Shown here one piece after another: positions 1,286 through 54,053 of a DNA stretch of 64,000 bases; position 1 is the stretch's first letter, and each line of letters begins with the position of its first letter. The notes under the pieces were generated by a model. That model was not told where the DNA came from and searched no databases. It worked only from the letters and a program-made list of their open reading frames with translations. Location: NCBI GenBank assembly GCA_038889075.1, contig JAWAHS010000001.1, forward strand, positions 215,764-279,763, written 5' to 3'. The position numbers were made by a program, and so were the translations under genes. The DNA comes from Ignisphaera sp. GTDB taxonomy: Archaea; Thermoproteota; Thermoprotei_A; Sulfolobales; Ignisphaeraceae.

Positions 1286-1297
1286 GGTGATCACCAT

Positions 1298-2740
1298 ATG
1301 CCATGGCAGCCTCCAAGCCCTATACAGGTATTTCAATTGTTACCTAAAACAAACTGTGGCAAGTGTGGAGAACCAAACTGCATGGCCTTTGCAGTAAGGC
1401 TAGTAAACTTTGAAGTGGCTTTAGAAACATGTACACCACTTATCGAGGATTCAAATCTGAAGCCAGCGTACGAGAAGCTGAAATCTCTTCTAGCACCACC
1501 TGTAAGAGAAATTGAACTTAGAGGTTCTAAGAAGAGTCTGAGGATTGGAGGCAAGTATGTACTGCATAGGCATGAGCTACGCTACATGAATCCCACAGCC
1601 ATAGCTATAGATATCGACGATTCTATGGATAGGGAAACGATTTTGAAGAGGGTGGAGATGGTCGAGAAGTTTGAGTATGAATACGTTGGACAAAAACTTA
1701 AGCTGGATGCGATCGCCATAAGATCTACCTCTAATGATCCTAAGCAGTTTGCTAGAGCAGTTCAGCTCGTAGCTGAAAATAGTAGCTTACCCATAATACT
1801 ATGCTCTCTAAATCCCTCAATTATCGAAGCTGGTTTAAATGTTCTTACACCACCCTATAGACCTCTACTATATGCTGCTACAAGAGATAACTGGAGGGAG
1901 ATGGTAGAGCTTGCAAAAAGATTCGAAGCTCCTCTGTCAATTGCAAGCCCTGGTGATCTAGATATGCTGGTATCGCTATCCAAGACAATTACGGAGGATA
2001 TAGGTTTCCAGGATATTACTCTAGATCCGGGTTGCTTTATAGGGTTGGGAGGACTATCATATACATTGAAAGCCTACAGCTGGATAAGGTATAAGGCTGT
2101 ATACGATTTATGGAGATACGCAGGTTTTCCACTAATAGCAACACCGATAGCTGTATGGAGCTACCTTAAAGGTGACATTACAGAGATTATGTGGTGGGAG
2201 GCTACACTCGCTCTAACACTCATGACCAGATACGCTGATTTAATAATAATGCATACCCTAGAAGGATGGACGCTACTTCCACTAGTTATGTGGCGCTTCC
2301 AACTCTATACGGATCCAAGGAAGCCCGTGGCAGTACCTTCAGGAGTGAGGGAGATTGGCAAACCCAATGAAAATTCGCCAGTTATAGTGACCACCAATTA
2401 TGCACTCACATACAGTATTGTTTCAAGCGATGCTGAAAGGTCAAAGGTTAATGCATGGCTCTTAGTTGTAGATACAGAGGGGCTAGCCGTAGACGTTTCC
2501 GTTGCTGGAAGAAAGCTTACAGGTGAAAAGGTGCGGGAATTAATTAAGAGTAGCAATCTAGAGCAGAAAGTAAAACATAGAATACTGATTATACCAGGTA
2601 AAGCTGCGAGAGTACAAGGCGATATTGAAGATGCTACAGGTTGGAAAGTTATTGTAGGTCCTATGGATTCTAGCGAGATAGGAAAGTTCCTGGAGAAGAC
2701 GTGGACCCCAGAAAAGTTAAAAGAGTTGGGCGAGGGTTAA
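1298..2740 (+). CDS. cdhE: ACDS complex gamma subunit (corrinoid Fe-S protein large subunit, AcsC)
   Basis: N-terminal LPKTNCGKCGEPNCMAFA [4Fe-4S] motif; YTDPRKPVAV, TTNYALTY, VDTEGLAV and IIPG motifs. Confidence 0.95.
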   Translation: MPWQPPSPIQVFQLLPKTNCGKCGEPNCMAFAVRLVNFEVALETCTPLIEDSNLKPAYEKLKSLLAPPVREIELRGSKKSLRIGGKYVLHRHELRYMNPTAIAIDIDDSMDRETILKRVEMVEKFEYEYVGQKLKLDAIAIRSTSNDPKQFARAVQLVAENSSLPIILCSLNPSIIEAGLNVLTPPYRPLLYAATRDNWREMVELAKRFEAPLSIASPGDLDMLVSLSKTITEDIGFQDITLDPGCFIGLGGLSYTLKAYSWIRYKAVYDLWRYAGFPLIATPIAVWSYLKGDITEIMWWEATLALTLMTRYADLIIMHTLEGWTLLPLVMWRFQLYTDPRKPVAVPSGVREIGKPNENSPVIVTTNYALTYSIVSSDAERSKVNAWLLVVDTEGLAVDVSVAGRKLTGEKVRELIKSSNLEQKVKHRILIIPGKAARVQGDIEDATGWKVIVGPMDSSEIGKFLEKTWTPEKLKELGEG

Positions 2741-2894
2741 CAATAGAATACAATAGAATATTTTTAACCAGCGAATACTATTTAGTTAGGCTTTTCATGT
2801 CTGACAAAGGCTAATCAAAAATACGGTCTTAAAAGGTAAAAACTTTCTAAAAGCATGTACTAAAATAGTAAAGGCATATTGAAGGAGGATAGCT

Positions 2895-4745
2895 ATGAAC
2901 AGTACAGTTAGGGTAAGGTTTCCTCAGTATGGAATAGAAGTTGAGGTATCGAAAGGTACAACGATTCTGGAAGCGGCTAAGAAAGCTGGTATAGGTATTA
3001 GGAGTGTATGTGGTGGAAAGGGGCTTTGCGGTAAATGTAAGGTACTAGTTGCTAGTGGAGGAGTCGATCACAAGCTTGGGGATAGAACACTACTTGCGGA
3101 AGACGAGATTAGGAAGGGATACGTACTCGCATGTATAGCTAAGGTTATGAGTGATCTTGAAGTAGTAGTACCACCAGAGAGCTTTATTGGAAGAGCAAAG
3201 CTTCTCTCTACTGTTGCACTACCACAAGTCTCTCCACAGCCATCTATTATTCTCCAGCGTATAGACGGTGCTTCAAAGATTAGGGAATACATTCTGAGCT
3301 TCCGTACCAGTAGCGATATTATTAAAAAAATTGAGGTCTCCCCCAATGGATCTCTGGTTATGGACTTGTATGCCAATAAGATAGTGGATTTCCTACCCGA
3401 ATCTAGAAGTATTGAAGGAATCTATGGTATCGCAGTCGACATCGGTACTACAAAAATTGTTGTTGCCCTAGTTGATATTACATCAGGCAGGATCCTGGGT
3501 GTAGAATCGGAATTCAATAGGCAGCTCATATACGGTGAGGATATAGTTTCTAGGATTTCTAGAGCAATTGATGGAATTGAAGGTTTGAGAGAAGTTCAGA
3601 GAGCGGCTATCACCACGGTTAATGAGCTTATTCAGAGGCTTTGCAAAAGGTTTAATGTAGATCCTCGGAATGTATATGAGATTGTAGCAGCAGGAAATAC
3701 TGCTATGACTTTCCTCTTTGTTGGTGAGAATCCCTATCCACTTATAAAATCCTTTAAAGAACCTGTACGGGTAACTCCAAAGCCATATATACTAGATGCT
3801 AGGGATCTGGGTATAGATGTAAATAGCAATGCCAGTATATACATTCTTCCATGTGCAGGGAGATTTCTCGGTGGAGATGTTGTAGGGGATGTAATAACAG
3901 CTGGTATGAACTTCTCTGAGGAACCGTCGCTACTCATAGACATTGGAACTAATGCCGAGGTTGTCATGGGGTGCAGGCACTGGTTTATAGGTACAACAGC
4001 ACCTGCTGGTCCAGCTTTCGAGGGCTGGGGGCTGAGGCATGGTGTTAGAGCTGTTGCAGGTGCTATTGAAAGCGTTGCTGTGGATCCAGCTACACTAAAA
4101 GCTGAGTATACTACTATAGGAAATGCTAAGCCTATTGGAATATGCGGTTCAGGTTATATAGATCTTGTGGCGCAGCTCTTTGTAAACGGTGTTATAGATG
4201 TATTTGGAAAGTTTTACAGAGGTGTGAAGTCGCAGTATGTTAGGGAGGGTACAGAGGGATACGAGTATGTTGTTGTTCCTTCTAGTGAAGCTGCTATAGG
4301 TAGGGATATTGTTGTTACAGAGAAGGATATATACAACATAATCGATTCAAAATCATCCGTTTGTGCTGCAATATCGATACTGCTGAAGAAGATGTATCTA
4401 AGCGTATTTGATGTTAAGAGCGTATACATCTGTGGAGCATTCGGTAGGTATCTAAATATAAACAGTGCTATAGCTATCGGTATGATACCGGAGTTTCCAA
4501 ATGCCAAAATAACCTATATTGGTAATGGTTCGCTAGGTGGAGCCTATCTAGCACTTATATCGAAGACCTATAAACTTGAGGCTGAGAGAGTTGCGAAGCT
4601 CATGGCATCTATAGAGCTTATGCTTGATCCAAACTTTATGGAGGAGTACGAGGCCGGCTTCAAACTCCCCGGAAGGAGGGAGCTGTTTCCAACATGGTGG
4701 GAGAGGGCAAGATCCGTAAAACAGTGGAGGATTCCCGGTGGTTAG
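2895..4745 (+). CDS. Reductive activator of corrinoid proteins (RACo/AcsV, ASKHA ATPase with N-terminal [2Fe-2S] domain)
   Basis: CGGKGLCGKC...LAC ferredoxin domain; DIGTT, DIGTNAE, GPAFEG, GICGSG and GNGSL ASKHA motifs. Confidence 0.92.
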   Translation: MNSTVRVRFPQYGIEVEVSKGTTILEAAKKAGIGIRSVCGGKGLCGKCKVLVASGGVDHKLGDRTLLAEDEIRKGYVLACIAKVMSDLEVVVPPESFIGRAKLLSTVALPQVSPQPSIILQRIDGASKIREYILSFRTSSDIIKKIEVSPNGSLVMDLYANKIVDFLPESRSIEGIYGIAVDIGTTKIVVALVDITSGRILGVESEFNRQLIYGEDIVSRISRAIDGIEGLREVQRAAITTVNELIQRLCKRFNVDPRNVYEIVAAGNTAMTFLFVGENPYPLIKSFKEPVRVTPKPYILDARDLGIDVNSNASIYILPCAGRFLGGDVVGDVITAGMNFSEEPSLLIDIGTNAEVVMGCRHWFIGTTAPAGPAFEGWGLRHGVRAVAGAIESVAVDPATLKAEYTTIGNAKPIGICGSGYIDLVAQLFVNGVIDVFGKFYRGVKSQYVREGTEGYEYVVVPSSEAAIGRDIVVTEKDIYNIIDSKSSVCAAISILLKKMYLSVFDVKSVYICGAFGRYLNINSAIAIGMIPEFPNAKITYIGNGSLGGAYLALISKTYKLEAERVAKLMASIELMLDPNFMEEYEAGFKLPGRRELFPTWWERARSVKQWRIPGG

Positions 4746-5526
4746 GATGAGGAGACCATTTGTAACCTCCATTTCTGGTAAGGGTGGTAGTGGTAAGACT
4801 ATGCTAACAGCACTACTAACAAAGATTTTAATTGAACATGAAACTGGTGATGAAATTCTAATTGTGGATGGCGATCCAGCTACAAACCTGCCTGAAGCAC
4901 TAGGCATTGAGATTAGAAAGACCATTGGGGAGGTTGTTGAGGAATTTAAAAAGAGCTCCCAGGAACAGAGTTTTTCAGCCTCTTTTAGAAAGGATGCCCT
5001 GCTGGAGTACCTTATTATGAGGGATTGCTTAGTTGAGCTAGAACACTTCGACTTCATAGCCATGGGTCGTGGTGAGGGTGAGGGATGCTATTGTTTTATT
5101 AACGCTCTTCTCGTAGGGATTCTAAGTAAACTCATACACAACTATACAGTAGTTTTAATGGATATGGAGGCAGGGCTGGAGCACCTCAATAGAAGAACGG
5201 ATAGATACGTCAATACAATGGTAGTCGTTGTAGATCCCTCGAAAATGAGCTTCAAAACCGCAGAGAGAATTAGAGAGGTAATCGTAGAGGTGGGGCTAAA
5301 GGTGAATAACATGTACATTGTTGGAAACAAGATCCCTCAGGCAGATATGGAGAGGCTATACAATTGGGCTAAGAACATAGGCTACGAGGTCGCAGGTGTA
5401 GTACCGTACGACCCACTAATAGAAGAATTTAATACAAATGGAATTCCTCTCATAAAGCTACCCAGTAGTAGCATAGCAGTAAGAGCGGTAAAGGATGTAG
5501 CCAAGAGGATATCGCTAATAGACTAG
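4738..5526 (+). CDS. cooC: CooC/AcsF nickel-insertion ATPase for CODH/ACS
   Basis: GKGGSGKT P-loop, DGDPATNL, GEGCYC metal motif, DMEAGLEHL. Confidence 0.9.
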   Translation: MVRMRRPFVTSISGKGGSGKTMLTALLTKILIEHETGDEILIVDGDPATNLPEALGIEIRKTIGEVVEEFKKSSQEQSFSASFRKDALLEYLIMRDCLVELEHFDFIAMGRGEGEGCYCFINALLVGILSKLIHNYTVVLMDMEAGLEHLNRRTDRYVNTMVVVVDPSKMSFKTAERIREVIVEVGLKVNNMYIVGNKIPQADMERLYNWAKNIGYEVAGVVPYDPLIEEFNTNGIPLIKLPSSSIAVRAVKDVAKRISLID

Positions 5527-6155: not shown

Positions 6156-6261
6156 TGGTGCCGCGGCCGGGATTTGAACCCGGGTGTCCCGCACCATTAT
6201 TTGGATTTGGTGTCACGGGCTCGAGAGGCCCGCATACTTGACCGGGCTATACTACCGCGGC
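6156..6261 (-). tRNA. tRNA-Glu(CTC) with 28-nt intron at non-canonical position 45/46 (intron 6186-6213), CCA encoded
   Basis: Reverse complement gives GCCGCGG acceptor, CGGGC-CTCTCGA-GCCCG anticodon arm, CCGGG-TTCAAAT-CCCGG T arm and ACCA; the insert forms a bulge-helix-bulge-like motif. Confidence 0.93.
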
Positions 6262-34128: not shown

Positions 34129-35487
34129 TCAAGTTTCTATTTTTATTCCGTGGTCTTCTACTTCCTTTACAGCTTTTTTATAGAGTTCTAACCACCATTT
34201 CTGTGGTTCTATGGTCTTCATGTTATAGAGTTCTGGAAATGGTTTACCGATATCCGGTTTCTCCATAGAGTGTGGATAGTACTTCTTTAGAAACACCTTG
34301 ACAATCTCATTAGCATCTCCCCTACTAAATCTTGTAGCAGCATATGCAATCTGAGCCATAAACCTAGCCTCCAAACCACTAGCATTAGGATACTTACCAT
34401 TAGTTGCACAAACTCCCAGAGGGTGGGATCCTGTAACCACATTTACTATAGTATTGGCCACTATTTCATGGAATATTGTGTATGATCCTGCACCATTGCT
34501 AGTCCATACATCGCCCATTAGGATGAAGGTATCCCCTATTGCTTGCCCAGCAATATTGAGGAGCCACATCGTCTCCGGTGTTGTTGTACTTACATATTTT
34601 GGGTGTATCGGATGTATTATATGGTAATCTGAAAAGTAAGCCGCTCTTCCAAGTATGAAGGATGCTATGAATCCTATAGCTACTCCTTCGGGACTTCCTA
34701 GAAAGCCCCCTATTACTGGGTCTACAAGCGTTACATTGAATCCTCCATAAGCTTTAAATGTATAGGCCTTAATTAAACGGTCATAATCGGTCTTCAAATC
34801 ATTCAATATTGGTACTAGATGGGCGTCGCTTCTCCTGAGTAACTCTGGTTTTTGAATAGCTAAATCACCAATACATGAAACACTGCTTTCTCCAGCAAGC
34901 AAATGAATTCCAGGTCTTCCTGCAGATAATGCGGCACTCCTTAAATACATCAATTCATGAATAGCTGCAAGTGCTTCAGCTGGTGATCTAGTCCTTACAT
35001 CTATTCCTTTCACTTGGGCTAATCCACCATGATTTATAGTATCAATTAGTAGCTCCTTCATATAGGATAGCGCCATCTCGTAGTAGAACTCTTCTGGGAT
35101 TGGAGCTCCTGCTTGCCCTCCCATTATTATTGGTTTTCTCTGATCCTCTATCTTTCTAGCATATAGTATTCTGGAATCCCTACCTTCACCAACTATAATC
35201 TCCTTAGGACTAGACTTTATAGCATATTTGAGCTCCTCTTCAGAAAACTTTACAACTCTTCTAGCATCAACAACATACATACCAACATCTAAAGCTAGCT
35301 GAAAACCTGCTTCAAATACAGATTTGGCTAGTGAACTATCTACAGAAACTATATAGTCTCTATCAAAAACAATATCAAACTCCTTCACCAACCTCTTCAC
35401 AGTACTATATATCCTCATATCAAACTCTCTCTCCTCCATAAACACTCCTTCCTCAATACGCTGCAAAACACTATACATCGACAGCAT
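34129..35487 (-). CDS. mtmB: Monomethylamine:corrinoid methyltransferase (MtmB) homologue 1, pyrrolysine-free (Leu at the Pyl-equivalent site)
   Basis: AGRPG...E.S.S, LNDLKTD, P.IGGF.G.PEG, P.HPKY.ST, GLEARFM, GKPFPELY match the MtmB pattern; no in-frame TAG; ATG at 35487 preceded by GAGGTGA. Confidence 0.88.
   Translation of the reverse strand: MLSMYSVLQRIEEGVFMEEREFDMRIYSTVKRLVKEFDIVFDRDYIVSVDSSLAKSVFEAGFQLALDVGMYVVDARRVVKFSEEELKYAIKSSPKEIIVGEGRDSRILYARKIEDQRKPIIMGGQAGAPIPEEFYYEMALSYMKELLIDTINHGGLAQVKGIDVRTRSPAEALAAIHELMYLRSAALSAGRPGIHLLAGESSVSCIGDLAIQKPELLRRSDAHLVPILNDLKTDYDRLIKAYTFKAYGGFNVTLVDPVIGGFLGSPEGVAIGFIASFILGRAAYFSDYHIIHPIHPKYVSTTTPETMWLLNIAGQAIGDTFILMGDVWTSNGAGSYTIFHEIVANTIVNVVTGSHPLGVCATNGKYPNASGLEARFMAQIAYAATRFSRGDANEIVKVFLKKYYPHSMEKPDIGKPFPELYNMKTIEPQKWWLELYKKAVKEVEDHGIKIET
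34136..34408. repeat. 273-bp inverted repeat, copy A (3' end of mtmB-1); partner 38645-38917
   Basis: Read-through comparison shows identical sequence in reverse complement. Confidence 0.9.
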
Positions 35488-35494
35488 CGCTATC
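35117..35494. repeat. 378-bp inverted repeat, copy A (5' end of mtmB-1); partner 37559-37936
   Basis: Identical in reverse complement from GATAGCGATGCTG to ATAATGGGAGG. Confidence 0.9.
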
Positions 35495-35518: not shown

Positions 35519-36196
35519 CTACTTACTAGCTTTTTTCCTTTCCTCAATTAATTTCTTGGCAACGTTAACCGCCTCCTCAAAATGTTCACCATATCCATCA
35601 GCACCTATCTCCTGGGCCCATTCTCTAGTAACAGCTCCTCCACCAACCATAACAATAAATCTTTCACGAAGTCCTCTTTCTTTTAACATTTTAATTACAT
35701 CCTTGACATAGGGAAGGGAGGTGCTCATCAATGCGGAGATAGCTATTATATCAGCACCCGTTTCAATAGCTTTCTTAACAAAGAGATCTACAGGTACATC
35801 CCTTCCCAGATCGATTACATCAAAACCATGGGCTTTTAGCATCATTGCAACGATGTTTTTTCCAAGGTCATGGATGTCGCCTTGTATGGTTCCAATAACC
35901 ACTTTTCCAATTGTTATTTTCTCCTTCTGTGTTGCTGAAATTAGGGGTTCTATATGTTTTAGTGAAGCTTCAAATGCTTCTGCAGCCATCATGACCTCTG
36001 GGAGAAAGATTTCCAGTTTGGCAAATCTATCTCCAACGTTATTCATAGCTGTTATGAGACAATTATTGATAATATCTAAAGGTGGGTAACCAAGGTCTAT
36101 AAGCTTGGTTGTCAATTTACTAGCATTGTCAGCATTTCCGTTCTCGATGGACTCCATCAATTCTAAACATATTTTATCTGCACTTACACTGTTCAT
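35519..36196 (-). CDS. Cognate corrinoid protein (MtmC/MtbC family)
   Basis: B12-binding cap (FLPEVMMAAEA) plus GDIHDLG (DxHxxG), DLGRDVP, SALM, MVGG, IGADGY. Confidence 0.93.
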   Translation of the reverse strand: MNSVSADKICLELMESIENGNADNASKLTTKLIDLGYPPLDIINNCLITAMNNVGDRFAKLEIFLPEVMMAAEAFEASLKHIEPLISATQKEKITIGKVVIGTIQGDIHDLGKNIVAMMLKAHGFDVIDLGRDVPVDLFVKKAIETGADIIAISALMSTSLPYVKDVIKMLKERGLRERFIVMVGGGAVTREWAQEIGADGYGEHFEEAVNVAKKLIEERKKASK

Positions 36197-36403
36197 CGAA
36201 TGCACCACATATAGCTATTTGCTATAATAGTTCTTTTTAAATTTTACCTTAAATAATATACCCATTTAAGATGCGGTGCCAACGAAGTTGCGATAGATCG
36301 CCTATCTTACAATATTTATGTAAAAAATACCATGTGTGTGTAAACGAGAGTTTATATATACCTATTATATGTATGTAAAATCCAAAATAGATCTACCTTA
36401 GAG
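36197..36403. promoter_or_regulatory. Divergent promoter region for the corrinoid/mtmB-1 and BMP/mtmB-2/ABC units
   Basis: AT-rich intergenic segment between head-to-head genes with TATA-like tracts (TTTAAA near 36237, TTTATATATA near 36351). Confidence 0.5.
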
Positions 36404-37552
36404 GTGATTTATGTGGTTAATATTACTCTCAAACTCGCCTTAACTGCAGTAGTCTTACTAATAGTAGGACTGTTAGCTGGATATGGAATTGGAATGCAAT
36501 CCACTAAGAGCACACAGTTACCCGTAACATACACTACAACACTAACCAATACTATTACTATAACATACACTACAACATCTACAGTGACCATTGCTACCCC
36601 AACAATACCATCTGTAAAAGGACTTAAGGTTGCTGCTATATATGTTACACCCCTTGAAGAGCCGTGGAATACGGTGTTGCATACTGCATTAAGTTGGGCT
36701 AGGGAAAAATATGGTATTGATTATAGATACGTTGAAAAAGTTTCTGAGGCAGATGTTGAAAGTGTTATGAGGAGTTTAATTAATGCAGGTTATAGGGTGA
36801 TATTTGCCCATAGCTGGGGTTATAATGAGGTTACGAGAAAGATAGCTCGTGAATATCCTGATGTATTCTTCTTACAAGGCTCAGGCCCTGTTGATGTTGA
36901 CTGGCCATCCAATGTACTAGTCTACGACTACTATATCCAGGATGCAGCTTTTGTAGCAGGTGCTCTTGCAGGGTTATTAACAAAGAGTAATGTAATAGGA
37001 GTTGTAGCAGCATTTCCTGTTGAAGATGTTAATATACTAGTGAACGCTTTTATAGCAGGTGCCAGATATGTCAATCCAAATGTTAAACCTATTGTAACAT
37101 ATATTGAGAGCTGGTTCGATCCTGTGAAAGGACGTGAAGCAGCTGCAGCTCAAATAGCAGCAGGAGCGGACTTCATATATGCCGAAAGATATGGTGTTTT
37201 TGAAGCATGTTTAGATGCTATGAAATCAGGAAGAACTGTATATGCATTTGGAAATGTAGTTGATCAAAATGAGCTAGCACCAGATGTGGTGCTTGGAAGT
37301 GTTGCATGGGATCTCAAATCCTTTGTCGAATATGTTATAACAAACTATGTTGATGGTAGATTAGAGGGTGGGAAGATAATTATGTGGGGTATGAAAGAGG
37401 AGTGGGCAAAGTTTATATGGAATGAAAAGCTAAAGATTCAAATCCCAGAAGACGTTTTACAGAGAGTTTACGGAATAGAGTACATGATAATCAAGGGCGA
37501 GCTAGAAGTTCCAGTATATAGAGATTGGAATCCAAAGAGATGGGGTATCTAA
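36404..37552 (+). CDS. BMP-family ABC transporter substrate-binding protein (nucleoside/purine-type clade)
   Basis: N-terminal TM anchor and Thr-rich linker; NAFIAGARYVNP, ESWFDP, GADFI, GNVVDQ. Confidence 0.9.
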   Translation: MIYVVNITLKLALTAVVLLIVGLLAGYGIGMQSTKSTQLPVTYTTTLTNTITITYTTTSTVTIATPTIPSVKGLKVAAIYVTPLEEPWNTVLHTALSWAREKYGIDYRYVEKVSEADVESVMRSLINAGYRVIFAHSWGYNEVTRKIAREYPDVFFLQGSGPVDVDWPSNVLVYDYYIQDAAFVAGALAGLLTKSNVIGVVAAFPVEDVNILVNAFIAGARYVNPNVKPIVTYIESWFDPVKGREAAAAQIAAGADFIYAERYGVFEACLDAMKSGRTVYAFGNVVDQNELAPDVVLGSVAWDLKSFVEYVITNYVDGRLEGGKIIMWGMKEEWAKFIWNEKLKIQIPEDVLQRVYGIEYMIIKGELEVPVYRDWNPKRWGI

Positions 37553-37558
37553 GGGCTG

Positions 37559-37936
37559 GATAGCGATGCTGTCGATGTATAGTGTTTTGCAGCGTATTGA
37601 GGAAGGAGTGTTTATGGAGGAGAGAGAGTTTGATATGAGGATATATAGTACTGTGAAGAGGTTGGTGAAGGAGTTTGATATTGTTTTTGATAGAGACTAT
37701 ATAGTTTCTGTAGATAGTTCACTAGCCAAATCTGTATTTGAAGCAGGTTTTCAGCTAGCTTTAGATGTTGGTATGTATGTTGTTGATGCTAGAAGAGTTG
37801 TAAAGTTTTCTGAAGAGGAGCTCAAATATGCTATAAAGTCTAGTCCTAAGGAGATTATAGTTGGTGAAGGTAGGGATTCCAGAATACTATATGCTAGAAA
37901 GATAGAGGATCAGAGAAAACCAATAATAATGGGAGG
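37559..37936. repeat. 378-bp inverted repeat, copy B (5' end of mtmB-2)
   Basis: Identical to the reverse complement of 35117-35494. Confidence 0.9.
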
Positions 37937-38930
37937 ACAGTCTGGTGCACCTATACCCGAGGAATTTTACTACGAGATGGCACTATCCTATGCAATAGAA
38001 TCCTATGTAGATATACTATCCGTCGGAGGGCTTGCAAAGATAAGGGGAATAGATGTAAGGACTAGATCACCAGCCGAGGTTCTAGCAACTTTTCTAGAGC
38101 TATCATATCTTAGAATGGCTATACAAGCAGCAGGAAGACCCGGTATGCCAATTAAGGCCGGGGAAAGCAGTGTTTCAGCGCTAGGGGATCTAGCAATATT
38201 GGGAATGCTTAGAAAGACCGATGCACATCTAGTGGCACTGCTCAATGATTTGAAGACCGATTATGATAGACTAGCAAAAGCATTTGCATTCAAACAGTAT
38301 GGAGGTATAAACATAGCCTTAATAGATCCTGTTATCGGCGGCTTCCTAGGGGGTCCTGAGGGCGTAGTCGTAGGTTTAGTAGCTTCCAACATACTCTCCA
38401 AGATAATCTACATGGCTGATTTCATAATAAATCATCCGATACACCCAAAATATGTAAGTACAACAACACCAGAGACGATGTGGGTTTTGAGTACAATAGG
38501 ACAGACAATGGCCCACAATACCGACTTTATAGTAGTAGGCGATGTATGGACTAGCAATGGTGCAGGATCATACACAATATTCCATGAGATGGTCCCTGTC
38601 ACCATTTCCAATACTGTGTCAGGCCTTCATCTATGCGGCGTCGTTGCAACTAATGGTAAGTATCCTAATGCTAGTGGTTTGGAGGCTAGGTTTATGGCTC
38701 AGATTGCATATGCTGCTACAAGATTTAGTAGGGGAGATGCTAATGAGATTGTCAAGGTGTTTCTAAAGAAGTACTATCCACACTCTATGGAGAAACCGGA
38801 TATCGGTAAACCATTTCCAGAACTCTATAACATGAAGACCATAGAACCACAGAAATGGTGGTTAGAACTCTATAAAAAAGCTGTAAAGGAAGTAGAAGAC
38901 CACGGAATAAAAATAGAGACGTTCGAATAA
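37566..38930 (+). CDS. mtmB: MtmB homologue 2, pyrrolysine-free (Lys/AAG at the Pyl-equivalent site)
   Basis: AGRPGMPIKAGESSVS aligns to methanogen AGRPGMGV-O-GPETSLS; termini identical to paralogue 1. Confidence 0.88.
   Translation: MLSMYSVLQRIEEGVFMEEREFDMRIYSTVKRLVKEFDIVFDRDYIVSVDSSLAKSVFEAGFQLALDVGMYVVDARRVVKFSEEELKYAIKSSPKEIIVGEGRDSRILYARKIEDQRKPIIMGGQSGAPIPEEFYYEMALSYAIESYVDILSVGGLAKIRGIDVRTRSPAEVLATFLELSYLRMAIQAAGRPGMPIKAGESSVSALGDLAILGMLRKTDAHLVALLNDLKTDYDRLAKAFAFKQYGGINIALIDPVIGGFLGGPEGVVVGLVASNILSKIIYMADFIINHPIHPKYVSTTTPETMWVLSTIGQTMAHNTDFIVVGDVWTSNGAGSYTIFHEMVPVTISNTVSGLHLCGVVATNGKYPNASGLEARFMAQIAYAATRFSRGDANEIVKVFLKKYYPHSMEKPDIGKPFPELYNMKTIEPQKWWLELYKKAVKEVEDHGIKIETFE
38645..38917. 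repeat. 273-bp inverted repeat, copy B (3' end of mtmB-2)
   Basis: Identical to the reverse complement of 34136-34408. Confidence 0.9.
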
Positions 38931-38945
38931 GGGTTTTGATTAAAA

Positions 38946-40538
38946 ATGAATGCAATTTTTTCCCTTATGAAATCATCTTTACATACTCCTTTATTTATCG
39001 AGATGAGGGGTATAACTAAGATATATCTAAATAGAATACCAGCGCTAATAGATGTGGATTTCGATGTGAAGCCTTGTGAGGTGCATTGTGTAGTAGGGGA
39101 GAATGGTGCAGGTAAATCAACACTTATGAAGATTTTAGCAGGCGTCCTGAAGCCTACTAAAGGGGAGGTTCTGGTAAATGGTAAACACGTAGCATTTAGT
39201 TCACCTACCGATGCTCAGAGGTATGGTATCGGCATGGTTCACCAGCTATTTAATCTGGTTGAAAATCTTACGGTAGTGGATAATGTATTGCTACTTCTCC
39301 CACTATCTCTAAGGGAAAAGCTGTGGATTAATAGGAGGAGATTTGCTATAGATTTTAAGCAATTTTCTGAAAGGATCGGTCTGCCGATGGATCCCTTTGC
39401 TAAAGTTGGATCCCTTTCTGCTGGTTTAAAGCAAAGGCTTGAGATACTAAGGCTTCTCTATCTAGGATTCAGAGTTTTGATATTTGATGAACCCACATCT
39501 ATGCTGACTCCCATAGAGGCTGAAGAACTGTATAGATTTGTTAGAAATGCAAAGAGTAGTGGGATATCTATTATATGGGTGACACATAGATTAAATGAAG
39601 TGAATAGTATATGCGATAGGGTTACTGTTTTAAGAAAAGGTAAGGTAGTGAAACACCTTGCTGAAGAGGATATGCAACGGGGTATAGAATTAGCTGAGCT
39701 TGCATACTATATGGTTGGAGAAAATGGTTTAGAACATCTCCATAAAGTTGGGCACCGCGATTCTAAACTGCAATCCAACAAACCAATCCTTAGGATAGAA
39801 AATGCTGTGATTAAGGATGAACACAATGGTATTAAAATTAAGAACATAAATTTAGAGCTATATAGAGGAGAAATTCTAGGTATAGCAGGAGTCAGTGGTA
39901 ATGGACAGAAAGAGCTTGTAGAAGGATTGTTAGGGTATAGACCACTTGAAAAGGGTAAAATCACATTTGATGGCGTAGACGTAACTTTTATGGGTGTTAG
40001 CGAACGGCTGAAAATGGGTATAGCATACATTCCTGCGGAGAGATTAGAAAGAGGCGTTGCAGAAGATCTTAGTATTGTAGAGAACATGTATACGTACTGG
40101 ATTAACGCTATAGATAGTTTTAGAAAGCAACATCTCTTGAAGAAGAAGCTTCTCTACAATACAGCAGTAAATTTAATTAAAGAATATGATATCAGGACAG
40201 CTGATCCTAACTTTCCTGTAAAAACACTATCGGGAGGCAATATACAGAAACTTATTTTAGCACGAATATTTCAGAACCCCTATATAAAGGTTGTAATTGC
40301 TGAAGAACCTACTGCTGGTCTAGATGTAAAGACAACTAGATTTGTTCACAGAAAGATTATTGAGGCAAGTAGACAAGGAGTATCGTTCATAGTATTTTCC
40401 TCGGAATTAGATGAGTTGCTTAATTTGTCGGATAGGCTGGCTGTAATGTATGATGGGAGAATAACGAGGATATACGACTGTGTGGATACAATCAATATTA
40501 ATGAATTGAGTAGATATATGATGGGGTTGGATGGTTGA
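38946..40538 (+). CDS. ABC transporter ATP-binding protein (fused double-domain, CUT2/nucleoside type)
   Basis: GENGAGKST, MVHQ, FDEPT, GVSGNGQ, LSGGNIQK, SSELDE. Confidence 0.93.
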   Translation: MNAIFSLMKSSLHTPLFIEMRGITKIYLNRIPALIDVDFDVKPCEVHCVVGENGAGKSTLMKILAGVLKPTKGEVLVNGKHVAFSSPTDAQRYGIGMVHQLFNLVENLTVVDNVLLLLPLSLREKLWINRRRFAIDFKQFSERIGLPMDPFAKVGSLSAGLKQRLEILRLLYLGFRVLIFDEPTSMLTPIEAEELYRFVRNAKSSGISIIWVTHRLNEVNSICDRVTVLRKGKVVKHLAEEDMQRGIELAELAYYMVGENGLEHLHKVGHRDSKLQSNKPILRIENAVIKDEHNGIKIKNINLELYRGEILGIAGVSGNGQKELVEGLLGYRPLEKGKITFDGVDVTFMGVSERLKMGIAYIPAERLERGVAEDLSIVENMYTYWINAIDSFRKQHLLKKKLLYNTAVNLIKEYDIRTADPNFPVKTLSGGNIQKLILARIFQNPYIKVVIAEEPTAGLDVKTTRFVHRKIIEASRQGVSFIVFSSELDELLNLSDRLAVMYDGRITRIYDCVDTININELSRYMMGLDG

Positions 40539-41599
40539 TTAAACAGATGGTTACTATCAAGATTGTTAATGTTGTATCCTTTTTCTTAGGATTCTCCATA
40601 CTCTTACTATTCACCGTGTTACTTTTTCTAGTCGCAGGTCTGGATCCCCTTACTTCGATACATCTTCTATTCTATTACGGATTTGGTTCTCCTAATTATC
40701 TCGTTGAGGCTCTATTGAGGAGTGTTCCCCTATTACTCATAAGTCTAGGACTAATGTTCACCTTCATAGCCGGTGTATGGAATATAGGTGCTGAAGGTCA
40801 ATTCTGTATAGGTGCAATAGTTGCTGCCTCCATTGCACTATATACAGCTTGGATGCCCTTTCCCATACCTCTAATCCTAGCTACCATTGGAGGAGGTCTG
40901 GGTGGAGCCCTCTATGCTCTAGTACCAGCTTATCTACGTGCAGTTAGAAACATAAATGAAGTTCTTACATCGCTAATGTTGAACTATATCGCAATCTATT
41001 TTGTGAGCTATCTAATACTTGGTCCACTAAGAAATCCTACAACAAATTTTGCTGAAACACCACCAATACCTGAAACAGCAATAGCACCTCGAATCCTATC
41101 GGGTTACAGATTGAATTATCTTTCAATTTTAGCATTTACATTAATTCCAATTACATTGATAGTACTTAGCAAAACTGGTTTTGGAATGTCCATCAGATTC
41201 ATGGGCCAGAATCCCATAGCTGCAGACTTTATAGCCATTGATAGGAAAAGGCTTATTTTAAGAACAATGTTTATTAGTGGTTTTCTAGCTGGTTTAGCAG
41301 CTGCCCATGAAGTTTTAGGTGTTGTCCATGCCGTTAGGCAAGGGATATCCTCTAGCTATGGCTACATCTCAATTGGTATAGCTTATTTCGGTGGACTACA
41401 TCCTATAGGGATATTTCTTGTATCACTCCTTGCAGCAGGTATAATTAATGGCACTAGATTGATTTGCTTCTTTTTGGGAATCCCCATAGGACTATCCGAT
41501 ATTCTATTTGGTGCTCTACCTATATTTGTGTTCATATCAAATAGAGTTGTAGAGAGACTGATAGTTAACAGATTAATATATGGTAGGGGGGTGCAGTAA
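40535..41599 (+). CDS. ABC transporter permease (nucleoside type)
   Basis: WNIGAEGQ, NEVLTSLMLNY, SGFLAGLA. Confidence 0.9.
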   Translation: MIKQMVTIKIVNVVSFFLGFSILLLFTVLLFLVAGLDPLTSIHLLFYYGFGSPNYLVEALLRSVPLLLISLGLMFTFIAGVWNIGAEGQFCIGAIVAASIALYTAWMPFPIPLILATIGGGLGGALYALVPAYLRAVRNINEVLTSLMLNYIAIYFVSYLILGPLRNPTTNFAETPPIPETAIAPRILSGYRLNYLSILAFTLIPITLIVLSKTGFGMSIRFMGQNPIAADFIAIDRKRLILRTMFISGFLAGLAAAHEVLGVVHAVRQGISSSYGYISIGIAYFGGLHPIGIFLVSLLAAGIINGTRLICFFLGIPIGLSDILFGALPIFVFISNRVVERLIVNRLIYGRGVQ

Positions 41600-42546
41600 T
41601 GAGTACCGTAATTGTATATGATTTCCTTCGTGCTGTTGTTAGGGTTTCAGCACCGCTGTGCTATGCTGGTCTCGGCGAACTTCTTGTAGAGAAGACCGGT
41701 ATGTTAAATATATCAATTGAGGGAACCCTATGGCTTAGTTCGCTAGCAGCATTTATTATCAACTATTACTATGGAAATCCATACTATGGAGTTTTTGTTG
41801 GAATGTTTGTAGGTATGCTGTACTATCTCCTCTTCGGTCTTTTCTCTATATACATTGGGTTGAATCAGGTACTGATTGGTGTAGCACTAAATCTCTTTGC
41901 CTACGGATCCACATTCTATATATACAGATTTGTTTTTGAATGGAGGGAGAGAACAACAATACCATCTGTAAAGACCCTTATGGACGATCTTAGAATACCC
42001 TTCTTATCCGATGCACCTTTCCTTGGTGGTGTACTTTTCAATCAACCTATCACGGTATATGGACTCTATATCCTCATACCACTAGCATACTATCTTCTAA
42101 ATAAAACTATGTACGGACTCTATATTACATCCATAGGCGAGAATCCGGAGGCTTCTGATCGATTAGGTATATCGGTTTTCAAATACAGACTGCTATGTCT
42201 CTGTCTAGGAGGACTACTTGTCGGATTAGGTGGTTCCATCTTCACCACATACCTATCAAATATCTATTTGGATCAGATGATTGCGGGAAGAGGATTCATT
42301 GTCATAGCCCTCTTGATCCTAGGATCGTGGACGCCTTTAAAAACAATAGGTGCCATTCTACTATATTCATTTATTGAAGCTTTTCAATATAGATTTCAAG
42401 CACTCTTTGCGTCGCTAATGACATTCATACCATATCAGTTTGTATTAATGCTACCATACCTTACTACAATTATAGCATTGACAGTAATTGGAAGGAAAAT
42501 CAAACCTCCTGCGTGGCTTGGTAAACACTATACACGCATTAAATAG
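41599..42546 (+). CDS. ABC transporter permease (nucleoside type)
   Basis: GELLVEKTGMLNISIEG, GENPEA, AGRGFI, LPYL, PPAWLG. Confidence 0.9.
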   Translation: MSTVIVYDFLRAVVRVSAPLCYAGLGELLVEKTGMLNISIEGTLWLSSLAAFIINYYYGNPYYGVFVGMFVGMLYYLLFGLFSIYIGLNQVLIGVALNLFAYGSTFYIYRFVFEWRERTTIPSVKTLMDDLRIPFLSDAPFLGGVLFNQPITVYGLYILIPLAYYLLNKTMYGLYITSIGENPEASDRLGISVFKYRLLCLCLGGLLVGLGGSIFTTYLSNIYLDQMIAGRGFIVIALLILGSWTPLKTIGAILLYSFIEAFQYRFQALFASLMTFIPYQFVLMLPYLTTIIALTVIGRKIKPPAWLGKHYTRIK

Positions 42547-42635
42547 ATATATGGTGAAAGCATATAGGTAGGCATATTAGAGGGTGGTGCAGATGCTTAA
42601 GAAGTTGTTTAAAAATCTTGAAATCTTTTTAGTAG

Positions 42636-43649
42636 GTGGTTAATATGATTAAATCTAGCGAAAAGATTAATCTGCTATTAAGGAACGGATACTCAGAGGA
42701 GGTAGTAGTTTTCCCTATAGTAGGATACCACGCAGCATACGTTTATAATATACCGTTTTCCATATATGTTAGAGATGCTAAGAGGATGGCTGAAACTCAG
42801 TATAAGGTGCTTAAATACTATGGATCTGATTTCATAGCACCTGTCATGGATTTAACAGTAGAGGCTGAGGCACTAGGCGTTTCCGTATCGTGGAACTCCA
42901 TTCCACCATCAATACATAGCCACCTAACAGTTAATGATATGCACATCATTGATAGATTAGCCAGCAACTTTCTTAGTCTTGGAAGAATTCCAGTATTCCT
43001 TGAATCCATAAAGACGCTTAGAGAAATCGATAGAGACGATAAGATTATATGTGGTTATGTCACAGGCCCCCTTACACTGGCTGGGAATGTATTTGGCTAT
43101 GAAAATACTCTTAAATTAGTATTGAAGGATCCTCGTAAGCTTAGTGAAATCATCGATCTGCTCCAGAGGTTGTCAATTCCATATCTAAGGGCATTGGTAG
43201 AAAACGGAGCTGATTGCATCATTGTAGCGGATCCGTTATCGGCTTTAATATCTCCACAGCACTATACTACATTTTCACTTAAACCATTAAAGACAATTGT
43301 AGATGAGGTAGAGAGATTGAATAGAATTGCAATTCTACATACTTGTGGAAATGCTACCAGAATACTAAGGCTGATGGCTGAAACAGGTGCTCATATTCTA
43401 AGCATAGACAAATATGTAGATATAGGATTTGCGCTAACGAGCACCAATAGGGTAATAATGGGTAATGTGCCAACCACATTATTTCTAATGAGTGCTGAAA
43501 AAGTATCGGAATATACGCTATCTATTCTAAACATATCTATGGGAAGAAGACACATTATAGCATCAGGTTGCGAAATACCTCCATACTCAAACCCAGAGTG
43601 TATAAAAGCAATGGTATCTTCAGCAAAATCCTTTAGTATACGGAGCTAA
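42636..43649 (+). CDS. MtaA/MtbA-like methylcobamide methyltransferase (MT2, URO-D fold)
   Basis: DLTVEAEALG, GPLTLA, ADP, LHTCG (HxC) and SGCE zinc ligands, MGNV. Confidence 0.85.
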   Translation: MVNMIKSSEKINLLLRNGYSEEVVVFPIVGYHAAYVYNIPFSIYVRDAKRMAETQYKVLKYYGSDFIAPVMDLTVEAEALGVSVSWNSIPPSIHSHLTVNDMHIIDRLASNFLSLGRIPVFLESIKTLREIDRDDKIICGYVTGPLTLAGNVFGYENTLKLVLKDPRKLSEIIDLLQRLSIPYLRALVENGADCIIVADPLSALISPQHYTTFSLKPLKTIVDEVERLNRIAILHTCGNATRILRLMAETGAHILSIDKYVDIGFALTSTNRVIMGNVPTTLFLMSAEKVSEYTLSILNISMGRRHIIASGCEIPPYSNPECIKAMVSSAKSFSIRS

Positions 43650-44073: not shown

Positions 44074-45624
44074 GTGTATACCGTGTTCAAAGGGTTCAAG
44101 ATCATTCTTACAGGTGACGAAGGTCTTGTAAGTAGTTACTATGGTACATATTTGGGCTTTGCATCAAGTTTGCCTATGGACATCTTTCCAGCTATCCTCG
44201 GAGAGTTTCTATTCCCCATTAGAAGTGGGAAACATGGAAGGATGCTCACTAGCCAGTACGGCTTATGTAAAATCGAGGCTACATTACTGAATAGTGGTTT
44301 TTCAAGAAATGAAGTTGCCATTGTAGATCCTAGGAGACTTGAGGAAGCTATAGGTCCTGAGACCCGAGCTATCGGTATAGGAGTTCTCGATCCCCTTGGC
44401 GTTAATTATGGCACAGCCCTTCTAAGGATAGTGCTTAGACTTATTGGAATGGAAACTAGGCTTCAGTCATACATGTCCTGGGCAACAATGAAAATCTTCA
44501 ACAACCCTGCTGTTAAGGGTTATAGAAATAGGCTCAAGATTATTGTAGGTGGACAGGGTGTATGGGAGATAATTGACGGAGGTTTGCAGAGGAAACTCGG
44601 TATAGATACTATAGTTGAAGGTGAGGGGGAATTAGTTGCCCCTACATTATTTAAGGCAGCTGTTAATGGTATGCCTTTGCCCAGCTATATAAGGGGTCCT
44701 CCGGTTCCAGTTGATAGAATCCCTGTAATAAGGACACCATCAAGGGGATTTGTAGAGATAACTAGAGGATGTGGAAGAGGCTGCATGTTCTGTAACCCTA
44801 CATTACTCATGTTTAGGTCCATACCCTACGAAAATATCTCTAGAGAGATCCTCACTAATTTGATAGGAAATGAAAAAAGAATAACACTACACTCGGAAGA
44901 TTTCCTTAGATACGGTTCAACAAGCCTCTATCCAAATGAAGAAAAAATTACCAAAATGCTTGGAAATATCTTAAAGATTCCAGGCCTAGAGGAGGTTACA
45001 GTAGACTTTGTGGCAGCTTCTACAGTCATGCTCAATCCTAGACTTGTCAAAGCAGCTAGCGATATCCTAGGTATTGGAGGTAGAAATCGATCGTTGATTC
45101 AGATGGGTATTGAGAGTGCAAGTCCGAGAATAATCAAGCTGATTGCTCCAGGAAAACCTAAGCCCTTTAGCTATGAAAAATGGCCTGAAGTAGTAGAATC
45201 AGCTATTATCGTATTGAATGATACTGGTTGGTGGGTTTGTGCAACGATAATAGTGGAGCTACCTTTCGAACAACATGAAGATATAGAAAGTAATATAAAA
45301 ATGGTAGAGAAGTTGGAACACTACGATGTACTCGTACTCCCCCTACCATTTATACCATCGGGAAGTCTTAGAAGAATAAAGAAGTTTACCTCTTCACACA
45401 TCCTAACGCATGCTAGAAATCTAGAGCTAATAGCCATAGCAGTATATGATGCAGTGAAAAAGATAAGGAAACTCTCAAAGTATCTAGTTGCACGAGCTCC
45501 TATCGGGGTAAAGCAACTATTAGGAGGTTTGCTCTATATGGCAGCAACTATAGGTGTTAGAAAACTCCAGAGAGGTATTCTAGAGTTCAAGATGCAATCG
45601 TACCTTAATCGGTATTCACTATAG
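44074..45624 (+). CDS. B12-binding-domain radical SAM protein
   Basis: YGLCKIEA, DPLG, VGGQG, EGEGE, EITRGCGRGCMFC (CxxxCxxC), GIES. Confidence 0.85.
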   Translation: MYTVFKGFKIILTGDEGLVSSYYGTYLGFASSLPMDIFPAILGEFLFPIRSGKHGRMLTSQYGLCKIEATLLNSGFSRNEVAIVDPRRLEEAIGPETRAIGIGVLDPLGVNYGTALLRIVLRLIGMETRLQSYMSWATMKIFNNPAVKGYRNRLKIIVGGQGVWEIIDGGLQRKLGIDTIVEGEGELVAPTLFKAAVNGMPLPSYIRGPPVPVDRIPVIRTPSRGFVEITRGCGRGCMFCNPTLLMFRSIPYENISREILTNLIGNEKRITLHSEDFLRYGSTSLYPNEEKITKMLGNILKIPGLEEVTVDFVAASTVMLNPRLVKAASDILGIGGRNRSLIQMGIESASPRIIKLIAPGKPKPFSYEKWPEVVESAIIVLNDTGWWVCATIIVELPFEQHEDIESNIKMVEKLEHYDVLVLPLPFIPSGSLRRIKKFTSSHILTHARNLELIAIAVYDAVKKIRKLSKYLVARAPIGVKQLLGGLLYMAATIGVRKLQRGILEFKMQSYLNRYSL

Positions 45625-45742: not shown

Positions 45743-47978
<2,236 letters not shown>

Positions 47979-53898: not shown

Positions 53899-54053
53899 GG
53901 GCCCGTAGCTCAGCTAGGTAGAGCGGCGGACTATGAAAATGGGCCGAGGCTCCAGTTACTATGGGTCTGATGACCCTAGTGGGATGAAATGAAACTGGAG
54001 CGTTGATGGGAGAGACCCGTAGGTCGGGGGTTCAAATCCCCCCGGGCCCACCA
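53899..54053 (+). tRNA. tRNA-Trp(CCA) with two introns: 19 nt at 30/31 (53930-53948) and 59 nt at 37/38 (53956-54014)
   Basis: Removing both inserts gives a 77-nt cloverleaf with GCGGG-CTCCAGA-CCCGT anticodon arm and encoded CCA; both inserts form BHB-type motifs. Confidence 0.9.
53956..54014 (+). ncRNA. Intron-encoded box C/D-type guide for tRNA-Trp Cm34 and Cm39
   Basis: CTATGGGTCTG+ATGA pairs with tRNA 35-45 (D+5 gives C39); AACTGGAGC+G+TTGA pairs with 31-37+TT (D+5 gives C34); C'-like GGATGA lies between. Confidence 0.75.

Follow-up and report, generated by a model that had tools for sequence, protein, structure and literature searches.

This account concerns a pair of genes for MtmB-family methyltransferases in a 64,000-nucleotide stretch of DNA from Ignisphaera sp. 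(GenBank assembly GCA_038889075.1, contig JAWAHS010000001.1, positions 215,764 to 279,763 of the forward strand). The whole stretch is called the window here, and positions are counted from its first letter. In the MtmB of Methanosarcina barkeri, residue 202 is pyrrolysine (Pyl), encoded by UAG. In the window, the equivalent residue is lysine in one gene, mtmB-2, and leucine in the other, mtmB-1; these are referred to as the K type and the L type. The phylogenetic position of the K type points to a lysine that arose from leucine, not from pyrrolysine. The two genes and the two codons in question are:

37566..38930, plus strand: mtmB-2, a K-type pyrrolysine-free MtmB-family methyltransferase of 454 amino acids (Pfam PF05369, PDB 1L2Q, AlphaFold2 model).
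38154..38156, plus strand: the AAG codon for Lys197 of mtmB-2, in the pyrrolysine-equivalent column (sequence, PDB alignment, TAG column).
34129..35487, minus strand: mtmB-1, the L-type paralogue, 452 amino acids counted from ATG (Pfam PF05369).
34897..34899, minus strand: the CTT codon for Leu197 of mtmB-1 (read 34899..34897).

An alternative start for mtmB-1, a TTG at 35547, lies 60 nt upstream of the ATG and overlaps the gene for a corrinoid protein. The ATG is the likely start, because an inverted repeat shared by the two genes begins only 7 nt before the ATG of each.

Both proteins match the Pfam MtmB family (PF05369) over profile positions 2-450 of 450, with 325.9 bits for the K type and 304.8 bits for the L type against a cut-off of 25. 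When the K type was compared with the PDB by phmmer, the solved structures of M. barkeri MtmB were matched at E 1.2e-65 (1TV2) and E 7.6e-65 (1L2Q and 1NTH). In this alignment, which is ungapped in the region, K197 pairs with X202, the pyrrolysine. The motif at the site reads GRPGMPIK197AGES in mtmB-2 and GRPGIHLL197AGES in mtmB-1. The initial annotation, made from the sequence alone, had given these codons, coordinates and residues, and had taken residue 197 to be the pyrrolysine site by alignment to Methanosarcina MtmB; both statements hold.

A second alignment agrees. Species-representative genomes were scanned with an alignment of close homologues, which gave 78 loci. These loci and the window yielded 124 MtmB-family open reading frames (ORFs), which were translated with TAG as X and aligned to the subfamily profile with hmmalign. 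Here, K197 falls in the column that holds the in-frame TAG of 11 Pyl-type ORFs, which come from Veillonellaceae, Selenomonas and Actinomycetota records (L067-L072, L074-L077). One of these records, from Thermoleophilia (L076, 426-2218), also holds another TAG-type copy of mtmB, broken across two frames (ORFs 426-1346 and 1256-2218), which is probably frameshifted or a pseudogene.

The fold matches too. An AlphaFold2 model of the K type, built from a 31-sequence alignment, has a predicted local distance difference test (pLDDT) score of 91.4 and a predicted template-modelling score (pTM) of 0.92, and it places K197 in a short strand, residues 196-198. The model superposes on 1L2Q, 1NTH and 1TV2 with template-modelling (TM) scores of 0.94-0.95 and a root-mean-square deviation of 1.7 A over 452 columns, which is the favourable outcome of a structural comparison that the initial annotation had proposed.

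The same phmmer alignment pairs E200, L222 and L252 of the K type with E205, E229 and E259 of M. barkeri MtmB, the M. barkeri numbers being a hand count along the printed alignment. As had been stated at the outset, the Glu205 equivalent is retained, and the equivalents of Glu229 and Glu259 are leucine in both window copies. The work of Hao and colleagues from 2002 and 2004 is said to assign catalytic roles in MtmB to Glu205, Glu229 and Glu259, the last two as acidic residues beside the Pyl ring; a literature search on these roles returned nothing relevant. Among the 124 ORFs, glutamate is found at all three equivalents in 10 of the 10 complete TAG-type ORFs, and none of the Pyl-free ORFs has glutamate at the 229 or 259 equivalent. 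Judged from this alignment, the Glu229/Glu259 pair travels with pyrrolysine, and its loss is general to the Pyl-free branch of the family rather than specific to the window. The earlier suggestion that the active site has been rebuilt is therefore correct in that the site differs from that of the Pyl enzyme, but the loss of the glutamate pair is nothing special to this window.

The K type is, then, a member of the MtmB family. With M. barkeri MtmB it shares PF05369 over its full length, the TIM barrel, the GRPG motif and the Glu205 equivalent, and the two share a genetic setting that includes an adjacent corrinoid protein and a methyltransferase 2 (MT2) of the MtaA/MtbA type. It is not a pyrrolysine-dependent MtmB in the strict sense, since lysine or leucine stands in place of UAG and leucine in place of both glutamates. 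Identity to the M. barkeri protein is only 29-30%, the host, judged from the closest hits, is a non-methanogenic Ignisphaera-like crenarchaeon, and the window cluster has an ATP-binding cassette (ABC) importer embedded in it.

Lysine is uncommon at this site. A search of 5.8 billion clusters gave 121 full-length homologues, both window proteins counted, whose residues in the Pyl column are leucine (60), valine (30), isoleucine (27), methionine (1) and lysine (3). Lysine is carried by the window protein, by P0003 (84% identical) and by P0006 (68%). A larger sample of 268 was made by adding 147 new representatives from the best 150 of 813 HMMER matches (E <= 0.001) in a scan of 1.84 billion cluster representatives. 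Profile alignment and GRPG spacing agree that, with the added proteins drawn from those best 150 of 813 matches, four of the 268 have lysine in the Pyl column. The fourth is the distant P0152 (35% identical), whose lysine is spaced from GRPG as in the others: GRPGTPIKGKDG. MAFFT gives no lysine in this column for the 147 distant representatives, in an alignment that is gappy; the counts by hidden Markov model and by spacing recover P0152, which apparently represents an independent second origin of lysine at the Pyl position. Within the 124 locus ORFs lysine occurs twice, in the window and in L006, from a metagenome-assembled genome (MAG) of Ignisphaera, where the lysine is conserved although its codon has changed synonymously from AAG to AAA. 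By these counts lysine at the Pyl position is rare, with what appear to be at least two origins among the homologues. The survey of this position had been proposed with the initial annotation, which allowed that lysine might prove common here and irrelevant to function; its frequency among the matches listed rules this out.

A rare and conserved lysine, at exactly the Pyl position on a strand of a TIM barrel, suggests, of course, an explanation from chemistry. Lys197 might be reactive or modified, either forming a Schiff base with a carbonyl substrate or being carbamylated or acylated, and might so replace the electrophile chemistry of pyrrolysine. Foldseek does relate the K type to TIM barrels with a Schiff-base lysine or a carbamyl-lysine at TM 0.3-0.4, but this likeness is weak and generic to the fold, and identity to the Schiff-base-lysine enzymes is 11-15%, with nothing in the comparison that points to a specific relationship. 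The leucines at the Glu229 and Glu259 equivalents speak against such chemistry, as glutamate is present in every complete TAG-type ORF, and PylB-, PylC- or PylD-like biosynthesis genes were not found in the 64-kb window. We consider this explanation improbable. A radical S-adenosylmethionine (radical-SAM) protein of 516 amino acids is encoded at 44074-45624, between the MT2 gene and genes like NfnAB. It was considered as a neighbour that might carry out Pyl-like biosynthesis or modify the lysine, and was rejected; its matches to B12-binding radical-SAM proteins are weak, and the gene is missing from the syntenic stretch (L001) of the second Ignisphaera genome.

The history of the lysine was reconstructed from a tree of 58 rows and 236 columns (IQ-TREE quick search, LG+C20+F+G4), which used codons 126-360, left out the converted gene ends and the Pyl column, and had five TAG types as its root. 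Its four Lys sequences are monophyletic, with a Shimodaira-Hasegawa-like approximate likelihood-ratio test (SH-aLRT) support of 100, on a stem of 0.34 substitutions per site. They lie inside a 21-row clade of Leu-type Desulfurococcales (SH-aLRT 99), and this clade lies inside a 32-row clade with the Leu/Ile types of Methanomethylicia (SH-aLRT 95). Lysine versus other residues requires one change of state on the tree. The gene mtmB-1 is an ordinary member of the Leu/Ile-type homologues of Desulfurococcales and Methanomethylicia/Methanosuratincola, which are 50-84% identical.

The initial annotation had observed that AAG is one base from amber TAG and had offered the lysine as an evolutionary step on the way to Pyl or away from it. 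Here, the AAG codon is assumed to descend from, or to lead to, a UAG/Pyl codon, at a site that is indeed homologous to the Pyl site. The single substitution that separates AAG from TAG is real, but it is coincidental, as the orthologue in the second Ignisphaera genome, a MAG, uses AAA. The Lys clade, nested in the Leu types, is separated from the TAG types by three well-supported nodes. A tree forced to group Lys with TAG sequences is worse by a log-likelihood difference of 32.9 and is rejected by the approximately unbiased (AU) test (p-AU 0.0022). Further, the glutamate pair that accompanies Pyl is absent, and no tRNA-Pyl was found in the 64-kb window. Taken with the AAA codon, the tree and the AU test rule the intermediate out for all practical purposes, and its probability is negligible. 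From its nested position and from the AAA orthologue it follows that the lysine is derived from leucine. The change from leucine to lysine takes two nucleotide changes, and may have gone, for example, via methionine, which occurs at the site among the homologues.

Lysine is not the only residue that sets the K type apart. Relative to the Leu/Ile types, the replacement of leucine or isoleucine by lysine is accompanied by 13 more clade-specific changes on the long stem, all in one part of the gene:

37941..38645, plus strand: central cassette of mtmB-2, codons 126-360, which carries the 14 K-clade-specific substitutions (nucleotide comparison, alignment).

All four K-type sequences share these 14 residues, and none of 31 Leu/Ile-type relatives has them. 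In the first half they are S126, A143, V153 (from His/Asn), I186, M194, P195 (from His) and K197; in the second half I253, L271, N289, V345, L354, C357 and V360. Five of them (K197, I253, N289, C357 and V360) are on predicted barrel strands of the AlphaFold2 model.

Selection on the central cassette was measured as the ratio of nonsynonymous to synonymous substitution rates (dN/dS) by the method of Nei and Gojobori. Between the K orthologues of the two Ignisphaera genomes the ratio is 0.037, with dS at 1.66, and between the L orthologues it is 0.043; comparisons of K against L give 0.14-0.25. The value of 0.037 rules out that mtmB-2 is a pseudogene or a relaxed copy. The K type also retains the subfamily invariants, among them E200, D219, D254, H290, H293, W328 and H355. 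Judged by these patterns, both copies appear to be working enzymes that differ in their pockets. The differentiation of function that had been proposed for the two copies is in line with their distinct cores, both under purifying selection.

Outside the core, the two genes are nearly the same. Four arms of two inverted repeats make up their ends:

35062..35494, unstranded: inverted-repeat arm, 5' part of mtmB-1 (partner 37559-37991, 433 nt, 97% complementary).
37559..37991, unstranded: inverted-repeat arm, 5' part of mtmB-2 (partner 35062..35494).
34133..34408, unstranded: inverted-repeat arm, 3' part of mtmB-1 (partner 38645-38920, 276 nt, 100% complementary).
38645..38920, unstranded: inverted-repeat arm, 3' part of mtmB-2 (partner 34133..34408).

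At the DNA level the window pair is 100% identical over codons 1-120 and ~365-452, and 63-69% identical over codons 121-360; synonymous divergence is ~2 for the core, against 0-0.04 for the ends. The pair in the Ignisphaera MAG, consisting of an L type in L001 (23-1378) and a K type in L006 (1-1038, partial, from residue 107), likewise has ends that are identical to each other, and in its cores identity varies over 60-81% from one 30-codon block to the next, with most blocks at 60-70%. When the two genomes are compared, identity is 73-92% for the ends, 77-86% for the K cores and 70-89% for the L cores. On this pattern the ends are homogenised by gene conversion, that is, by concerted evolution, with the cores apparently kept apart by selection. 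In a third lineage, represented by P0006 (K) and P0008 (L), the ends have diverged and are not homogenised, which means that the duplication predates the conversion. Identical contig statistics suggest that P0006 and P0008 are on one contig.

Those who assemble metagenomes will suspect, of course, that such a mosaic, together with the pairing of K and L types, comes from a chimeric strain assembly or from collapsed repeats. Short-read assemblers have difficulty with exact repeats of 276 nt and ~375 nt, and both mtmB genes of the Ignisphaera MAG are at contig ends, as expected for repeats. The core that adjoins the ABC genes also differs between the assemblies. The slot upstream of the ABC ATPase, permeases and MT2 holds the K core in the window (37566-43649) and the L core in L001 (23-6026). 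Inversion at the 276-nt inverted repeats would fit this swap, and so would an ambiguous path in the assembly; the 22-nt leader before the L001 ATG looks more like that of the L type in the window. However, DNA differences of 31-37% separate the K core from the L core, each of which is orthologous across two assemblies, and the third lineage has both types with diverged ends. The window contig, moreover, spans all four repeat arms with distinct unique flanks, and the repeats end within ~10 nt of the ends of the coding sequences. An artefact of assembly is thus very improbable as the source of the pair.

The surroundings of the two genes suggest a methyl-transfer system with a transporter. The neighbouring genes, and one more distant gene that may belong to the same biochemistry, are:

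35519..36208, minus strand: cognate-type corrinoid protein (B12-binding_2 + B12-binding), the sole one in the cluster, directly upstream of mtmB-1 (Pfam).
36404..37552, plus strand: BMP/PnrA-family ABC substrate-binding protein, directly upstream of mtmB-2 (Pfam PF02608).
38946..40538, plus strand: ABC transporter ATPase with two ATP-binding domains (Pfam, NCBIfam).
40535..42546, plus strand: two ABC permease genes, 40535-41599 and 41599-42546 (Pfam, NCBIfam).
42636..43649, plus strand: MtaA/CmuA-family (URO-D fold) methylcobamide methyltransferase, MT2 (Pfam PF01208; PDB 4AY7 MtaA, E 7.9e-29).
2895..4745, plus strand: RACo/AcsV-type corrinoid reductive activator, adjoining cdhD/E and ~30 kb from the cluster (profile matches).

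These genes form two divergent operons, the minus-strand operon consisting of the corrinoid protein and then the L type, and the plus-strand operon of the BMP/PnrA-type binding protein, the K type, the ABC ATPase, the two permeases and the MT2. Two of the assignments have NCBIfam scores below the cut-off, namely the corrinoid protein (TIGR02370, 212.2 bits, cut-off 215.3) and the MT2 (TIGR01463, 173.8 bits, cut-off 235.4). The solved relatives nearest to the binding protein are 6PI5 (E 3.8e-33) and 3S99. Of these, 6PI5 is an atrazine/purine-type periplasmic binding protein and 3S99 a Brucella basic membrane lipoprotein; by analogy, this hints, as no more than a lead, at an N-heterocycle-type ligand for the BMP-type binding protein.

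Around the RACo/AcsV-type activator, which has a 2Fe-2S domain, positions 29-5526 of the window also hold two CdhD-family genes (acetyl-CoA decarbonylase/synthase corrinoid subunits) and a CooC-like ATPase. By their family assignments these are Wood-Ljungdahl components in a crenarchaeal genome. Ignisphaera bins with the Wood-Ljungdahl pathway and MtrH are described in passages of Berghuis et al. 2019 (PMC6421429), and these would be a plausible methyl-group sink.

Several other features of the window lie further from the subject. A DHODB-type Fe-S protein and a GltD-like flavoprotein, which form an NfnAB/SudAB-like pair (45743-47978), are kept downstream of the cluster in L001. The window also holds archaeal ribosomal genes, and its G+C content is 40%. 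Two Rfam tRNA matches, at 6159-6261 on the minus strand (103 nt) and at 53899-54050 on the plus strand (152 nt), were missed by ARAGORN and are probably intron-containing archaeal tRNAs. The intergenic region between the divergent operons was scanned for sigma-70 promoters and terminators, which is uninformative for an archaeal host.

The same kind of cluster is found elsewhere in Thermoproteota. In all five non-Ignisphaera loci checked by Pfam, four from Desulfurococcales (L002-L005) and one from Methanosuratincola petrocarbonis LWZ-6 (L024), it consists of a BMP binding protein, an ATPase, two permeases, a corrinoid protein, a Leu/Ile-type methyltransferase 1 (MT1) and, in tandem with the last, an N-type protein, which is a distant MtmB paralogue (GMHINDVA); MT2 or RACo genes join some of these clusters. 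The tandem of Leu/Ile type and N type occurs in 26 of 36 archaeal loci (L002-L005, L007-L027 and L029; for example, L024 9330-17389). The Ignisphaera arrangement differs from these in that the mtmB pair is inverted around the corrinoid and binding-protein genes and no N type is seen, either in the 64-kb window or in the two contig ends, L001 and L006, that are the other K-type source.

These observations bring in the main rival to the interpretation given below. Solved MtmB is a hexamer. The K and L types might be partner subunits of one hetero-oligomer, in which the K type replaces the N type and one subunit is catalytic, the other structural or regulatory, with both serving the same substrate. 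The frequency of the tandem in archaeal loci, and the lack of an N type in the available sequence of either Ignisphaera source, would fit this. So would the presence of one corrinoid protein for two MT1 genes, and interfaces common to both subunits could be what the identical N- and C-terminal thirds preserve. On the other side, both copies keep the subfamily invariants and are under equally strong purifying selection in the core, the absence of the N type is judged on no more than the window and two contig ends, and the lineage of P0006 and P0008 has diverged termini. The partner-subunit explanation is possible but, on balance, unlikely.

The organism behind L024, a methanogen in culture, offers a lead to substrates. 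According to the passages on its growth in PMC12244365, M. petrocarbonis LWZ-6 grows on monomethylamine, and it can reduce methanol as well as monomethylamine, whereas dimethylamine, trimethylamine, betaine and methanethiol are not reduced. A passage in Berghuis 2019 (PMC6421429) confines Pyl to methyltransferases of Methanosarcinales and Methanomassiliicoccales, whereas a passage in Mukai 2017 reports PylS in one Methanomethylicus bin. Because these papers conflict on Pyl systems in Methanomethylicia, the link between LWZ-6 and Pyl-free use of monomethylamine is only a lead. A literature search pairing Methanosuratincola with mtmB or pyrrolysine found nothing.

Two characterised enzymes help in thinking about the K type. 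The first is MtqB of Methanococcoides methylutens Q3c, a tetramethylammonium/choline:corrinoid methyltransferase of the non-Pyl MtmB family, whose function was assigned in 2026 and whose authors write that the functions of other non-Pyl MtmB proteins "have remained elusive" (PMC13044021). MtqB is, in the literature searched, the sole Pyl-free MtmB homologue with a demonstrated function. It shares with the K type its membership of the non-Pyl family and a cognate corrinoid protein. It would differ in branching near the Pyl-encoding MtmBs and in its conserved Met/Cys and aromatic pocket residues, as these are described for it. The MtqB substrates are cationic, and a lysine in the pocket would not be expected to suit them.

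The second is MtgB, a glycine betaine methyltransferase of the MttB superfamily, in which R312 and H348 at the base of the pocket bind the substrate carboxylate, according to the passages that describe them (PMC13080624). Like the K type, MtgB is a pyrrolysine-free relative of a Pyl enzyme, and its carboxylate-binding basic residues serve as a working analogy for substrate binding by Lys197. The analogy is, of course, one between different superfamilies (Foldseek TM ~0.5, 12-13% identity), and R312 and H348, as those passages describe them, occupy sites other than the Pyl-equivalent one.

The reading that we favour, with confidence somewhat above even, is that mtmB-2 encodes a neofunctionalised, pyrrolysine-free MtmB-family MT1 that has a Leu-derived Lys197 in a putative substrate pocket, and that it is neither a relic of pyrrolysine nor a precursor to it. 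Here, a Leu-type gene would have been duplicated within Desulfurococcales/Ignisphaera, after which the core of mtmB-2 would have diverged fast and gained L197K. A methylated substrate, probably imported via the adjacent BMP-type ABC transporter, would bind in the barrel. Lys197, on a barrel strand at the floor of the pocket, would supply a positive charge or a hydrogen-bond donor, and might protonate the leaving group or else hold the substrate by an anionic or polar group. The methyl group would thus be presented to the Co(I) of the one corrinoid protein whose gene lies between the two, and the MtaA-like MT2 would hand it on to an acceptor. The L-type copy, with its apolar residue at 197, would serve a different substrate or a different moiety of one, and both copies would use one corrinoid protein and one MT2. 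The gene-converted ends, identical over the first ~125 and last ~90 codons, may contact these shared partners, while selection would hold the cores apart.

Several points weigh against this reading. The superposition is at the level of the fold, and the side chain of Lys197 only presumably faces the pocket. The Lys clade consists of only four sequences (three protein clusters and one locus) from a narrow taxon, so that the conservation is shallow, and five of 14 clade-specific substitutions on strands is a weak enrichment. The pairing of Leu/Ile and N types elsewhere means that the K type could be a replacement partner subunit instead of an enzyme that has a substrate of its own. The identical ends could be due in part to the assembly of repeats in metagenome bins, yet they are species-specific in two assemblies. 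Finally, given that the core beside the ABC genes is K in the window and L in L001, the linkage of the K type to the transporter in one operon is not firm.

A bolder version can be drawn, and we find it rather doubtful. Here, the Lys sequences would make up a functional class of MtmB that is new, in which a canonical lysine does part of the job of pyrrolysine, an independent solution reached in a hyperthermophilic, non-methanogenic crenarchaeon. The methyl donor would be captured by the lysine, or oriented by it, so that Co(I) can attack, either ionically or via a covalent or modified-lysine adduct of that residue. The N-type partner would have been displaced in Ignisphaera, and conversion of the ends would keep the pair compatible with the corrinoid protein.

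What, then, is new here, and of what use is it? Non-Pyl homologues of MtmB are already known and are numerous. Of a subgroup with lysine at the Pyl site, no description was found in the literature searched (for PMC13044021, in its text). With the idea of a Pyl intermediate gone, two things are left, a testable, near-isogenic pair of genes and a conserved, uncharacterised methyltransferase/transporter cluster. The homogenised ends and protected cores show cleanly how selection can limit gene conversion. The genes mtmB-1 and mtmB-2 are, in effect, a natural experiment, as they differ only in a 235-codon core, with lysine in one and leucine in the other at the site. Comparing them could reveal the role of the residue at the Pyl position in the absence of pyrrolysine, and could reveal the substrates of the methyltransferase/ABC-transporter clusters of Thermoproteota. 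The same type of cluster in LWZ-6 raises, in turn, the question of whether Pyl-free enzymes can use monomethylamine.

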